From: Roseovarius sp.
GTDB taxonomy: Bacteria; Pseudomonadota; Alphaproteobacteria; Rhodobacterales; Rhodobacteraceae
Assembly: GCF_965228755.1 (NCBI RefSeq)
Contig: NZ_CBDDIG010000003.1
Location: forward strand, 36,507-100,506
DNA: 64,000 bases
Direction: 5' to 3'
The stretch's first letter is position 1, and each line of letters opens with the position of its first letter. The position numbers and the translations under genes are program-made. Positions 44,473-61,434 of this stretch are shown in pieces. The notes below the pieces were generated by a model that saw nothing but the letters and a program-made list of their open reading frames with translations, had not been told where the DNA came from and did not search any database.

Positions 44473-45543
44473 TCAGCCCGCCTTGCGGGCCAGCCCGCCC
44501 CGCCGCGCGCGCACGGCGTCGGCCAAGCCGTGCAGCGCGGTTTCCGTCTTCTCCCAGCCAAGGCAGCCATCGGTGATCGACTGGCCGTAGACCAGCGGCC
44601 CCTGCCCCACCTTCTGGGCGCCCGCGACAAGGTGGCTTTCCACCATCACGCCGGTGATCCGGCGGTCGCCCGCCGCCACCTGCGCGCCGATCTCGTCCAG
44701 CACCTCCGGCTGTTTCTCGGGGTCCTTGCCGCTGTTGGCGTGGCTCGCGTCGATCATCACCTGCGGCCGCAAACCGTCATTCACCATTTTCGCGCAAGCC
44801 GCCTCGACCGAGGCCGCATCGTAATTCGTGCCGCCCCCGCCGCGCAGGATGACGTGGCAGTCGGCATTCCCGCCGGTGCCGACGATGGCCGCCTGCCCCT
44901 CCTCCGTCAGCCCCATGAAATGATGTGGCTGCGCGGCCGAGCGCACGGCGTCGATGGCGATCTGCACGTTGCCGCGGGTGCCATTCTTGAACCCCACCGG
45001 GCAGGACAGGCCCGACGCCATCTCGCGGTGGATCTGGCTTTCCGTCGTCCGCGCCCCGATGGCGCCCCAGGCCACGAAGTCGGCAATGTATTGCGGCACC
45101 GTGGTATCGAGGAACTCCGTCCCCACCGGCAAGCCCATCTCGGCCAGTTGCAGCAGAAGCGTGCGCGCCGTCTCGATCCCCTCGTTGATGCGGAAAGAGC
45201 CGTCGATGCCCGGATCGTTGATCAGCCCCTTCCAGCCGCCGATGGTGCGGGGCTTCTCGAAATAGGCCCGCATGACAAGCTCCACCGCGTCCGACAGCTC
45301 GTCCCGCAGGGTACGCAGGCGGCCGGCATACTCCACCGCCGCCACCGGATCGTGGATCGAGCAGGGCCCGACCACCGCGACGATCCGGTCGTCGCGCCCG
45401 TCGAGAATGGCGCGGATCGCGGCGCGGCCCTCCTGCACCGTCTGTGCGGCCGGGTCACTCACGGGATGCCGCGCGCGCACCGTCGCGGGGGAGAGGAGTT
45501 CGTGCATCTTCGTGATGCGGAGGTTCTGTGTCGTCGTCGCCAT
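44473..45543 (-). CDS. aroG: 3-deoxy-7-phosphoheptulonate (DAHP) synthase, type I alpha (AroG/F/H-like)
   Basis: GPCSIHD, RAYFEKPRT, GWKGLINDP, AIGARTTESQIHR, GFKNGT, DASHANS; paralog identity (G/F/H) not resolvable. Confidence 0.9.
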   Translation of the reverse strand: MATTTQNLRITKMHELLSPATVRARHPVSDPAAQTVQEGRAAIRAILDGRDDRIVAVVGPCSIHDPVAAVEYAGRLRTLRDELSDAVELVMRAYFEKPRTIGGWKGLINDPGIDGSFRINEGIETARTLLLQLAEMGLPVGTEFLDTTVPQYIADFVAWGAIGARTTESQIHREMASGLSCPVGFKNGTRGNVQIAIDAVRSAAQPHHFMGLTEEGQAAIVGTGGNADCHVILRGGGGTNYDAASVEAACAKMVNDGLRPQVMIDASHANSGKDPEKQPEVLDEIGAQVAAGDRRITGVMVESHLVAGAQKVGQGPLVYGQSITDGCLGWEKTETALHGLADAVRARRGGLARKAG

Positions 45544-45581: not shown

Positions 45582-45605
45582 AAAAAACCGCCGGTGAGGG
45601 CGGTT
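45582..45605 (-). terminator. attenuator terminator in the DAHP synthase leader
   Basis: Minus strand AACCGCC-ctcacc-GGCGGTT-TTTT, about 40 nt before the ATG. Confidence 0.8.
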
Positions 45606-45634
45606 CGGTTTGGTGTGTCACTGTCAACGTTTTG

Positions 45635-45712
45635 TCAGAACGCGCAGACCCTTCCCGCCGCCATATGGCTCGGAGCATAAAAATACCAGAATGCGGCAAA
45701 GGTGCGTGTCAT
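45635..45712 (-). CDS. aromatic-amino-acid leader peptide MTRTFAAFWYFYAPSHMAAGRVCAF
   Basis: 25 codons with consecutive TTC TGG TAT TTT TAT; starts at the predicted transcription start; followed by a terminator. Confidence 0.78.
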   Translation of the reverse strand: MTRTFAAFWYFYAPSHMAAGRVCAF

Positions 45713-45719
45713 GGGGGGC

Positions 45720-45748
45720 ACGCTAGCGGGGCTTGCCGGGCATGTCAC
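45720..45748 (-). promoter_or_regulatory. promoter of the leaderless leader-peptide transcript
   Basis: GTGACA-N17-TAGCGT, 7 nt before the leader ATG. Confidence 0.6.
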
Positions 45749-45849
45749 GTGAAAAATGCGGGCGTGGGCGCCCGTGGCCGGCACCCTGGGGGCCAGCCCC
45801 CCGGACCCCCCGGGATATTTCCGGCCAGAAGAAACGTGGGGCGGGATAG

Positions 45850-45880
45850 AAAAACCCCCGCCAGCGGAACCGGCGGGGGT
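45850..45880 (-). terminator. intrinsic terminator after rplQ
   Basis: ACCCCCGCC-N9-GGCGGGGGT-TTTT on the minus strand. Confidence 0.8.
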
Positions 45881-60265: not shown

Positions 60266-60757
60266 TCAATCGCGCGGAAATATCGTATGATCTCCCTCGT
60301 ACGTGACTTCCTCGCCTAGCGTCAAAGTGTCGTTGCCAAGGGAATAAGGAATGACCAGGATCACCGAAAAATCGTTCACGTGATCTATATTGACGACAAC
60401 TGCGTCACTTTCTCCGCCGCCATCAGGCAGGTTGACACGCGCATCGAAAAAGAGCGCAGTTGCAACATATTCCTGCGACTTGGCCGCCGCCTGAAATCCC
60501 TCAACAAGGAAGTCGATCACGTCCTGCGACGCAGGAGTTTCATCGCCGTCATAGGCGCCCACGGCCGTGATCTCACCATCGGGCAACATCGCCGCGCCAT
60601 AAGGGTAAAACTCACCATGTTCGCGCAACATCTGCGCGGAGAACCCAATCATGGCGTCCAGCAACTCGTTGGCGTCCGCAGTCGGATCACGCATCGGCTG
60701 GGCCTTCCCACATGACACGGCCACGAGCCAGACCAGCAATGTCAGGCGCAAAAGCAT
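60266..60757 (-). CDS. hypothetical exported protein, lower GC than the window
   Basis: N-terminal hydrophobic signal; MLREHGEFYPYGAAM; sampled lines 48-67% GC; GAAGGG SD. Confidence 0.75.
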   Translation of the reverse strand: MLLRLTLLVWLVAVSCGKAQPMRDPTADANELLDAMIGFSAQMLREHGEFYPYGAAMLPDGEITAVGAYDGDETPASQDVIDFLVEGFQAAAKSQEYVATALFFDARVNLPDGGGESDAVVVNIDHVNDFSVILVIPYSLGNDTLTLGEEVTYEGDHTIFPRD

Positions 60758-60864
60758 TCTCAAAACCCTTCAAGAAAAACCCCTTTTCAAGATGAAACAG
60801 ACAAACGCCAACGTATCAATCCCCGGCCCGATGTCTCAACCCTTAAGCGATGGACGCAGCCCGC

Positions 60865-60888
60865 CGTAGGGTGGGTGCCAACCCACCA
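60865..60888 (+). repeat. GTAG-type REP (family A)
   Basis: CGTAGGGTGGGTGCCAACCCACCA. Confidence 0.8.
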
Positions 60889-60901
60889 TGCCCGCCCCCC
60901 C

Positions 60902-60940
60902 AAAAAAACCAAAACCCCCGCCGATCTCTCGACGGGGGTT
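60902..60940 (-). terminator. terminator after rplP
   Basis: AACCCCCG-N12-CGGGGGTT-TTGGTTTTTTT on the minus strand. Confidence 0.8.
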
Positions 60941-60998
60941 CCGAATTCTCTCGGGCGAGGCGGCCCGCAGATTTCTTCGAAATCCGCTACACCGCCTG

Positions 60999-61020
60999 CG
61001 TCATTTGCAGGCAAATGACG
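60999..61020. repeat. CGTC-tagged hairpin abutting the rplP stop
   Basis: CGTCATTTG-cagg-CAAATGACG. Confidence 0.65.
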
Positions 61021-61434
61021 TTACCAGTCTTCCTTGACCACGATGCGGGTCTTGATCGGCAGCTTCATCGCGGCAAGGCGCAGGGCCTCTTTCGCGATGG
61101 CGTCGGAAACGCCGTCGATCTCGAACATCACCCGGCCGGGCTTGACCTTGCAGGCCCAGAAATCGACCGAGCCCTTGCCCTTACCCATCCGCACTTCGGT
61201 GGGTTTCGAGGTCACCGGCGTATCCGGGAAGATCCGGATCCAGACCCGGCCCTGACGCTTCATGTGACGCGTCATGGCCCGGCGGGCGGCCTCGATCTGG
61301 CGCGCGGTGACGCGCTCGGGCTGGGTTGCCTTGAGCCCATAGGTGCCGAAGTTCAGGTCCGAGCCGCCTTTGGCTTCGCCCTTGATCCGGCCCTTGAACT
61401 GCTTGCGGAATTTGGTGCGCTTCGGTTGCAGCAT
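61021..61434 (-). CDS. rplP: 50S ribosomal protein L16
   Basis: [18 protein letters not shown]. Confidence 0.99.

Follow-up and report, generated by a model that had tools for sequence, protein, structure and literature searches.

A candidate aromatic-codon leader-peptide attenuator upstream of the class I-alpha DAHP synthase gene in Roseovarius and its conservation among Proteobacteria

In a Roseovarius sp. genome (assembly GCF_965228755.1, contig NZ_CBDDIG010000003.1) the gene for 3-deoxy-7-phosphoheptulonate (DAHP) synthase, the enzyme with which aromatic amino-acid synthesis begins, is preceded by a short leader that combines a block of aromatic codons with an intrinsic terminator. We analysed the 64,000 nucleotides (nt) from 36,507 to 100,506 of that contig, called the window here, and count positions from its first nucleotide. 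The locus lies on the minus strand and reads, in order, rpoA, rplQ, a terminator, a GC hairpin, a promoter, the leader open reading frame (ORF), a second terminator, the DAHP synthase gene, and genes for a DegP-like protease and a RarA/MgsA-like ATPase. An earlier note on this DNA had proposed a leader-peptide attenuator that senses Phe, Trp and Tyr; every coordinate that it gave was correct and its features were found again on the minus strand. The unit is made up as follows.

45720-45748, minus strand: predicted promoter, with -35 GTGACA (45748-45743), a 17-nt spacer, -10 TAGCGT (45725-45720) and 7 nt to the ATG.
45635-45712, minus strand: leader ORF of 25 codons plus TGA, MTRTFAAFWYFYAPSHMAAGRVCAF, without a Shine-Dalgarno (SD) sequence and predicted to be leaderless.
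45700-45698, minus strand: an extra Phe codon, TTT, of the leader ORF.
45677-45691, minus strand: putative regulatory codons TTC TGG TAT TTT TAT (F W Y F Y).
45693-45706, minus strand: segment 1 (CGCACCUUUGCCGC), the partner of segment 2, from minimum free energy (MFE) folding, RNAalifold and helix pair counts.
45643-45662, minus strand: segment 2 (GGCGGCGGGAAGGGUCUGCG), predicted to pair with segment 1 or segment 3; its GGCGG core is nearly invariant across the family.
45599-45614, minus strand: segment 3 (ACCAAACCGAACCGCC), which includes the terminator 5' arm (45606-45599) and is the antiterminator partner of segment 2 in constrained folds and duplex predictions.
45582-45592, minus strand: segment 4 (GGCGGUUU, 45592-45585), the terminator 3' arm, running into a T6 tract (45587-45582).
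45606-45582, minus strand: the terminator from the terminator scan, an 8-bp hairpin (45606-45585) plus T6, ending 38 nt before the gene.
45557-45552, minus strand: SD sequence GAAGGA of the DAHP synthase gene.
44473-45543, minus strand: class I-alpha (AroF/G/H-type) DAHP synthase, 356 residues (PF00793, 6.5e-90; TIGR00034 aroFGH, 506 bits).

The DAHP synthase shares 98% and 96% identity with its counterparts in two Roseovarius metagenome-assembled genomes (MAGs) and 92% with that of R. indicus. Six of the 25 leader codons are aromatic and five of these are consecutive. By chance, 0.03 runs of at least five aromatic codons would be expected over all six reading frames of the window, and two occur; the second run, FWFFW at 60900-60914, was considered as a further leader and ruled out, being the T-tract of the rplP terminator read in frame. 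A longer in-frame ORF of 49 residues from GTG 45784 was also rejected: it would begin ahead of the conserved promoter, and its N-terminal extension lacks conservation. The earlier note had described TTT and TAT as uncommon in this DNA, and it was right about TTT, which accounts for 11% of the Phe codons in window ORFs with high GC content at third codon positions, yet for two of the three Phe codons of the leader; TAT, with 40% of the Tyr codons in the same ORFs, is just mildly disfavoured. The terminator scan returned four sites against 0.4 expected in shuffled sequences. Taken by itself, without comparative data, the locus in the window is suggestive but not compelling.

The comparative evidence decides for the attenuator reading. 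A scan with one genome per species yielded 574 candidate orthologous loci, from which 80 loci were returned at 56-98% protein identity; the flank of one (L080) was too short, leaving 79 testable. A leader was scored as present if a short ORF contained at least four aromatic residues among five consecutive ones. Such an F/W/Y-cluster ORF, with a terminator and like spacing, was found in 75 of the 79 loci, and an equivalent ORF in all ten loci of the Roseobacter group (68-92% identity), so that pooling gives 85 of 89 testable orthologous loci with the short aromatic-cluster ORF, the terminator and the same spacing. The 75 come from Mesorhizobium, Rhodopseudomonas, Bradyrhizobium, beta-proteobacterial MAGs, Rhodanobacter/Dyella/Povalibacter and one Gemmatimonadota MAG; the ten Roseobacter-group carriers are R. 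indicus, Pelagimonas, Thalassovita, Epibacterium, Pseudophaeobacter, Tritonibacter, Leisingera, Roseobacter sp. SK209-2-6 and two further assemblies. The leader was missing in four testable loci, two from Zetaproteobacteria, one from a Burkholderiales MAG and one from a Sedimenticola.

The geometry of the unit is preserved along with its parts. Leader length ranges from 22 to 28 residues across the family, and both the reading frame and the aromatic cluster are conserved in 85 loci other than that of the window; in the Roseobacter group the peptide has 25 residues and the form M(T/I)xxFAxFWYFY in ten of ten loci. The leader ATG lies 164-195 nt before the gene in most loci and 225-230 nt before it in the four Mesorhizobium loci that have an insertion, and 50-59 nt separate the leader stop codon from the end of the T-tract. 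In these four loci (L006, L012, L021 and L025) the T-tract is 104-109 nt from the gene start, as against 44-47 nt in others, with an insertion of about 60 nt (TAAACATAGTTTTACGCAATTCCGGACGGAAAACCGC... in L006) between attenuator and gene.

The neighbourhood upstream of the unit is not preserved. Within the Roseobacter group the adjacent upstream gene may be rplQ or one for a sulfotransferase, TauD, YitT, SUKH, PhoD, MatE or MCP. The upstream gene differs while promoter, leader and terminator stay together, and the unit therefore belongs to the DAHP synthase gene. These data bear directly on the simplest alternative, namely that the ORF arose by chance and that the hairpin merely terminates the ribosomal operon upstream or belongs to a repeat element. 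Such a view could draw on the multi-copy GC-rich repeat (45785-45845) that adjoins the region and on a promoter that is weak by E. coli rules. It fails because rplQ has a strong terminator of its own 150 nt upstream, because the unit stays with the DAHP synthase gene beside each of the unrelated neighbours just listed, and because the element is conserved across three proteobacterial classes; we regard a chance origin as refuted by the comparative data and give it next to no credence.

Codon content sets the leaders apart from the genes that they precede. Among 58 distinct leaders, 25% of the codons are aromatic compared with 4% in the adjacent gene, and TTT supplies 59% of the Phe codons compared with 8%; TAT supplies 50% of the Tyr codons in the leaders and 46% in the adjacent genes. 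All three aromatic residues occur in 52 of the 58, and the six leaders that lack Trp all belong to the beta group. The order and number of the aromatic residues vary freely (FWYFY, FWYYFY, VWFYFY, YFFYFYGFF, LYFWFYGY), with their aromatic character and position kept. This freedom is relevant to the idea that FWYFY is an arrest peptide of the TnaC kind, which would halt the ribosome when a free amino acid or small molecule is present and would not read tRNA charging. Aromatic-rich nascent chains can indeed contact the ribosomal exit tunnel, and nothing specific to this locus was found in favour of such a sensor, but the free variation of F, W and Y points to sensing at the level of codons and not to a specific arrest peptide, and the enrichment of the rare TTT is likewise a codon-level feature. 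A nascent-peptide sensor thus seems scarcely credible to us.

Outside the aromatic cluster the leader peptides are wholly different between lineages, and within lineages the C-terminal half is conserved, for example as SSLAAGGLRSI or HMA(A/D)GG. That conservation would be expected if the terminated leader RNA of about 130 nt, the 25-residue peptide, or both, also acted in trans, an extension that would add to the attenuator model and not replace it. There is a precedent in the trp attenuator of S. meliloti, which is of the same class and has a leaderless leader (PMC10117765, PMC6614838). The conserved C-terminal residues are, however, encoded by segment 2, where GGCGGCGGGAGG reads as AAG/GGG; the conservation of the peptide is thus explained by the RNA pairing of segment 2. 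The complete divergence of the peptide between lineages outside the cluster also speaks against a second function, which we consider unlikely.

The RNA itself carries the signature of two competing folds. In the MFE fold of the window leader, segment 1 (ACCUUUGCCGC) pairs with segment 2 (GCGGCGGGAAGGGU), and RNAalifold recovered this 1:2 helix and the terminator from a structure-blind alignment of 11 Roseobacter-group leaders. A covariance model (R1) built solely from these 11 sequences matched the leaders of Mesorhizobium, Rhodopseudomonas, Rhodanobacter and Povalibacter over their full length and where expected (E 1e-8 to 1e-11), those of Dyella, Bradyrhizobium and the Gemmatimonadota MAG more weakly (about 1e-4), and those of the beta group just marginally (0.003-0.17). 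R1 matched exactly once in the 64-kb window and gave no match in the four loci that lack the leader. In the off-state fold 94% of cells were paired, compared with 24-62% when partners were slid; compensatory changes were present in 10 of 19 pairs, and none of 500 shuffles reached these values. Helices 1-2 were 84-98% paired, with compensatory changes, while the terminator (helix 4) was fully paired in all 44 distinct sequences, of which 18 show an A-U pair exchanged for G-C. The alignment of upstream regions that the earlier note had called for thus bears out conserved aromatic clusters and covariation in both the 1:2 helix and the terminator.

Segments 1 and 3 have CCGCC cores and segments 2 and 4 have GGCGG cores in all lineages, an arrangement that classically lets segment 2 choose between two partners. 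The duplex of segments 2 and 3 was stronger than in shuffled controls in 18 of 22 lineage representatives; for the window it scored z=-2.5 (p=0.01). In register, the antiterminator was 86% paired in alignment A1 and 80% in alignment A3 (the latter fitted to model R1), compared with 18-49% when slid. Double changes in this helix are few, with one G-C to A-U change in Bradyrhizobium, and its core is invariant; the inner helix is lineage-specific yet complementary (GGAUU/AAUCC, GGAUUUCG/CGAAGUCC, GAACGCG/CGUGUUC, GUCGA/UCGAC, UUGGGUU/GACCCAA). When the nascent RNA of the window was folded up to the terminator loop with no ribosome, the 1:2 helix formed and the terminator 5' arm was paired with a probability of 0.31; with a ribosome placed on any aromatic codon, the arm was captured by segment 2 with a probability of 0.64-0.72, segment 2 pairing with CCG-AA-CCGCC. 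This last pairing is exactly the one written down in the earlier note. As a model calculation, folding of the truncated RNA with a stalled ribosome offers weak support for the switch. Equilibrium MFE folding of the complete leader with the ribosome footprint masked, in which the terminator survives almost always, was set aside as the wrong test because the terminator decision is co-transcriptional.

The distances between these parts fit the geometry of a ribosome. Across 68 distinct leaders the median distance from the last aromatic codon to the segment-2 core is 14 nt, and 17 nt separate that core from the stop codon; segment 1 sits 2-15 nt upstream of the aromatic run. With this spacing a ribosome stalled on the aromatic codons would be expected to mask segment 1 and leave segment 2 free. 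The segment-2 core ends 17 nt before the stop codon and is therefore free to pair again with segment 1 behind a ribosome at the stop codon.

These structural data also weigh on a translational alternative, in which the short ORF would act on translation or messenger stability through coupling, re-initiation or occlusion of the ribosome-binding site, and the hairpin and T-tract would not be a regulated terminator. In its favour are RNA-seq coverage that is undiminished past the hairpin in a Rhodopseudomonas relative and a conserved GGTCTCC...AGGAGC in Mesorhizobium and Rhodopseudomonas that could sequester the SD sequence. Yet the leader stop codon is separated from the T-tract by 50-59 nt and from the gene start by 90-110 nt, too far for coupling; a hairpin with U6-9 that is fully paired in those 44 sequences is a canonical intrinsic terminator; and the common cores of segments 1/3 and 2/4 are the signature of alternative terminator and antiterminator folding. 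We judge this alternative very improbable.

The arrangement of the promoter points to a leaderless start. The pattern (G/C)GACA-N17-TAGCGT-like-N7-ATG is kept in 11 Roseobacter-group loci. The leader ATG follows the end of GTGACA/TGGACA-N17-(C)TATAT(G/C) by 6-7 nt in Mesorhizobium, Rhodopseudomonas and Bradyrhizobium, and that of TATCAA/TATCTA/TATCAC by 7-8 nt in Rhodanobacter, Dyella and Povalibacter. Across the alpha and gamma lineages a -10-like hexamer precedes the ATG by 6-9 nt. No SD sequence was found before the leader ATG in the loci of the Roseobacter group, of Mesorhizobium/Rhodopseudomonas/Bradyrhizobium or of Rhodanobacter/Dyella/Povalibacter. Some loci of the beta group are not leaderless, since a hairpin of roughly 37 nt separates their -10 from the leader ATG. 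Four leaders from beta-proteobacterial MAGs (L051, L056, L065 and L072) contain no Trp codon, for example MNPTARSYFFYFYGFFRLAERVERRA, and a GC hairpin, some 40 nt upstream of the ATG, follows their TATCTT -10-like box; by its sequences this branch appears to be neither leaderless nor Trp-sensing.

RNA from relatives of Rhodopseudomonas places the start of transcription approximately. RNA contigs from three independent assemblies begin 16-18 nt after the leader ATG; on the Rhodopseudomonas palustris XCP locus (L042, leader ATG at 2828) the same data give contigs beginning at 2844-2846, and in one raw-read run the depth is about 0-2 at 2806-2841 and rises as a ramp from 2842. Overall, coverage begins 14-18 nt after the leader ATG. 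No closer Rhodopseudomonas reference was found for RNA-seq run X70. Ordinary RNA-seq libraries lose the first 10-20 nt of transcripts, and coverage that starts this close to the AUG therefore excludes a substantial 5' untranslated region without fixing the exact +1. The observed start is consistent with a leaderless leader ORF transcribed from its AUG. Of the earlier claim that the transcription start coincides with the leader ATG, the promoter spacing and these reads uphold the lack of a substantial 5' untranslated region, the +1 itself not being fixed. A search for RNA runs of the strain itself returned none; for the window's own sequence, a metatranscriptome contig of depth 2-4 spans the leader, the terminator and the gene start; RNA-seq contigs from M. 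loti were long, flat and genome-like and hence uninformative.

Several results weigh against an attenuator and must be set beside the evidence given so far. About 50 of the sequences are from Mesorhizobium, and the locus counts overstate the number of independent events because many sequences are close relatives. The MFE z-score of the whole leader is unremarkable (-1.53), and the fitting of alignment A3 to R1 favours the structure and inflates its pair counts. In the stalled-ribosome equilibrium fold the window scores 1.00 against 0.70+-0.20 with segment 2 shuffled, and several relatives score no higher than the control. The antiterminator of the Roseobacter group consists of five invariant base pairs with weak extensions, and RNAalifold returned a weak consensus antiterminator for the truncated region, a result that was set aside, the 3' part of the MAFFT alignment being out of register. 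The antiterminator is conserved, yet of the three helices it has the weakest backing, above all in the Roseobacter group. A scan with an E. coli-type consensus found no site at the window promoter, whose -10 TAGCGT matches TATAAT at three of six positions. The negative scan is accounted for by the departure of alphaproteobacterial sigma-70 promoters from the E. coli -10 consensus (PMC8407463), and the window promoter is credible because it is conserved, which is the sole ground for it. Finally, the only raw-read RNA-seq, from a Rhodopseudomonas relative, shows no drop in coverage past the terminator; libraries of this type usually lose short RNAs, and this one is unsuited to an RNA of about 130 nt.

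On balance, we consider it highly probable from comparative sequence analysis that the leader is a ribosome-mediated transcription attenuator of the DAHP synthase gene that responds to the supply of aromatic aminoacyl-tRNAs, as the earlier note had suggested. Transcription would start at, or within 1-2 nt of, the A of the leader AUG; for that reason, we propose, ribosomes translate the leader ORF as a leaderless messenger. When aromatic aminoacyl-tRNAs are plentiful the ribosome would pass FWYFY and reach the UGA, segments 1 and 2 would pair behind it or segment 2 would be sterically blocked, the 8-bp hairpin with U6 would form, and RNA polymerase would terminate 38 nt before the gene, releasing a leader RNA expected to be about 130 nt long. 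If any one of the three were short, the ribosome would stall on codons 8-12 and cover segment 1. Segment 2, which starts about 14 nt past the last aromatic codon, would then lie just beyond the leading edge of the stalled ribosome and would be free to capture the terminator 5' arm, GGCGGCGG pairing with CCG-AA-CCGCC and GGU with ACC. With the arm captured, the terminator would be blocked and the polymerase would read into the DAHP synthase gene. Use of the rare TTT for Phe would probably make the response sharper. We infer translation of the leader ORF, premature termination and a response to starvation from this anatomy, and control by aminoacyl-tRNA, together with which of Phe, Trp and Tyr matter, is inferred in the same way.

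A broader picture may be drawn of one ancient cassette, made up of a promoter set directly against a leaderless AUG, a TTT-rich F/W/Y block and a CCGCC/GGCGG switch. It would have accompanied the genes for class I-alpha DAHP synthases through Alpha-, Beta- and Gammaproteobacteria and into at least one Gemmatimonadota MAG, would combine the charging states of three tRNAs, and would yield an abundant terminated RNA or peptide that also acts in trans like rnTrpL and peTrpL. Taken as a whole, this picture is speculative and we do not expect it to hold in full. A leader of the beta-proteobacterial type and a DAHP synthase 61% identical to the query lie together on a contig binned as Gemmatimonadota (L074); either the gene was transferred horizontally together with its attenuator, or the contig was binned wrongly.

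Upstream of the leader unit the window contains these features.

47495-46479, minus strand: rpoA.
46326-45907, minus strand: rplQ (matches PF01196).
45854-45880, minus strand: intrinsic terminator of the rpoA-rplQ unit, with a 12-bp stem and a T run, from the terminator scan; it is the upstream boundary of the leader unit.
45751-45774, minus strand: GC hairpin (45774-45759) running into ATTTTTC (45757-45751) just upstream of the -35, a terminator-like site.

An ATTTTTC-like motif lies 3-5 nt upstream of the -35 in most Roseobacter-group loci (L081-L090), regardless of the upstream gene; in the window it scores as a terminator because a 6-bp GC hairpin precedes it. The motif may be a UP-like promoter element or a terminator that insulates the leader promoter. 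Between the rplQ terminator and the leader promoter lies a GC-rich stretch (45785-45845, ccggggggtccggggggctggcccccagggtgccggcc on the minus strand) at which the assembler word depth was 600-2000 against 28-40 in the flanks in two runs with this genome, and from which many contigs continue into unrelated sequence. The excess depth and branching contigs therefore identify a multi-copy dispersed repeat, resembling repetitive extragenic palindromic (REP) elements, in this genome. Within the window the core palindrome of this repeat occurs in just two copies. A GC-rich palindrome, GGGGCTGGCCCCC, was considered as the flanking inverted repeats of a mobile cassette and discarded, its two copies in the window not being significant.

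On the downstream side, about 10-45 nt before the gene start, loci of Mesorhizobium and Rhodopseudomonas (L003-L050; for example L004:2957-3000) share a conserved GCCGGCAGGTCTCC...(A)AGGAGC, in place of which the Roseovarius window has GGGGGCCAGCCCGAAGGAC. The CUCC in this stretch may pair with the SD sequence AGGAG and add a translational layer. In R. palustris XCP an unrelated ZMP/ZTP riboswitch (L042:5905-5987, minus strand; RF01750, 63 bits) follows the DAHP synthase gene at a distance of about 2 kb. Elsewhere in the window, rplP (L16, 61434-61021) is followed by a strong terminator of its own (approximately 60935-60895) and a 165-residue ORF (60763-60266) without a Pfam match, and the ribosomal-protein gene cluster is apparently interrupted at 60266-61434.

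The element is a new and widespread family, although leader-peptide attenuation itself is textbook knowledge (trpL, pheL, pheM) and both attenuation of a DAHP synthase by a leader peptide and leaderless leader ORFs in Alphaproteobacteria are already known. The window leader has no match in Rfam 15 at E<=10, and in eight loci of other lineages no family reached its gathering score; the covariance models of Trp_leader (RF00513), Phe_leader (RF01859) and other curated leader families do not match the window leader. Searches of eight leader peptides against NCBIfam and of four against Pfam returned no family at E<=10. A proteobacterial description was not found in the full-text literature, in line with the earlier note, which knew of none for alphaproteobacterial DAHP synthases; older subscription papers may hold a prediction.

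The concept of attenuation is unchanged by this result, which will not surprise a specialist. Its value lies in a large and cleanly delimited RNA family outside Rfam and genome annotation; it comprises no fewer than 58 distinct sequences, and the scan gave 574 candidate orthologous loci. Many proteobacteria without control of the DAHP synthase gene of the TyrR/TrpR type could tune entry to the shikimate pathway in this way, and, if the proposal is true, one leader reads all three pools of aromatic aminoacyl-tRNA. It would be the second leaderless leader ORF from Alphaproteobacteria, S. meliloti trpL being the first, and possibly a natural three-input biosensor part for aromatic-compound engineering in Rhodopseudomonas, Mesorhizobium and Roseobacter-group hosts.

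The family resembles E. coli trpL, pheL and pheM in its four segments (1:2 and 3:4 versus 2:3), in having regulatory codons within or beside segment 1, and in its intrinsic terminator before the structural gene; unlike it, the E. coli leaders sense one amino acid each, have an SD-led ORF and control terminal-branch genes and not that for DAHP synthase. T-box leaders are reportedly found upstream of Firmicutes DAHP synthase genes (Panina et al. 2003). Like the switch proposed here, the T-box alternates between terminator and antiterminator according to tRNA charging where the shikimate pathway begins, but uncharged tRNA binds the RNA directly, without leader peptide or ribosome. The E. coli genes aroF, aroG and aroH are controlled by the TyrR and TrpR repressors (PMC11802643), and an older attenuation hypothesis for E. 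coli aroF is mentioned in PMC8632094. In Acholeplasma the uORFC-13-1 motif upstream of aroF is a proposed attenuator (Brewer et al. 2021, PMC8632094) and, like the present family, it is a bioinformatically defined upstream ORF with Phe codons and an adjacent intrinsic terminator before a DAHP synthase gene; it differs in its occurrence in Mollicutes, its ribosome-binding site, by which it is not leaderless, a U run that codes for Phe only, an unrelated sequence and its 24 representatives.

A functional parallel is the aroR-aroF leader of C. glutamicum, a leader-peptide attenuator of DAHP synthase (Neshat et al. 2014; described in PMC11802643 and PMC4046766). There too a short ORF with an aromatic cluster precedes the gene and control falls on the same pathway entry, and stalling relieves termination as is proposed here. 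In experiments aroR, which has an F-Y-F motif, responds to limitation for Phe and not for Tyr (PMC11802643); aroR belongs to an actinobacterium and has no Trp codon, whereas the present family has 4-9 aromatic codons, usually with one for Trp, a comparison that is one of functional description and not of sequence. Similar in host and in predicted start is the trpL leader of S. meliloti, whose transcript starts with AUG and is leaderless (PMC10117765). It is an alphaproteobacterial, leaderless and ribosome-dependent attenuator of an aromatic pathway, as is proposed for the leader described here, and it differs in controlling trpE(G), in sensing Trp only, in its 14-residue peptide, and in having an RNA (rnTrpL) and a peptide (peTrpL) with documented functions in trans.

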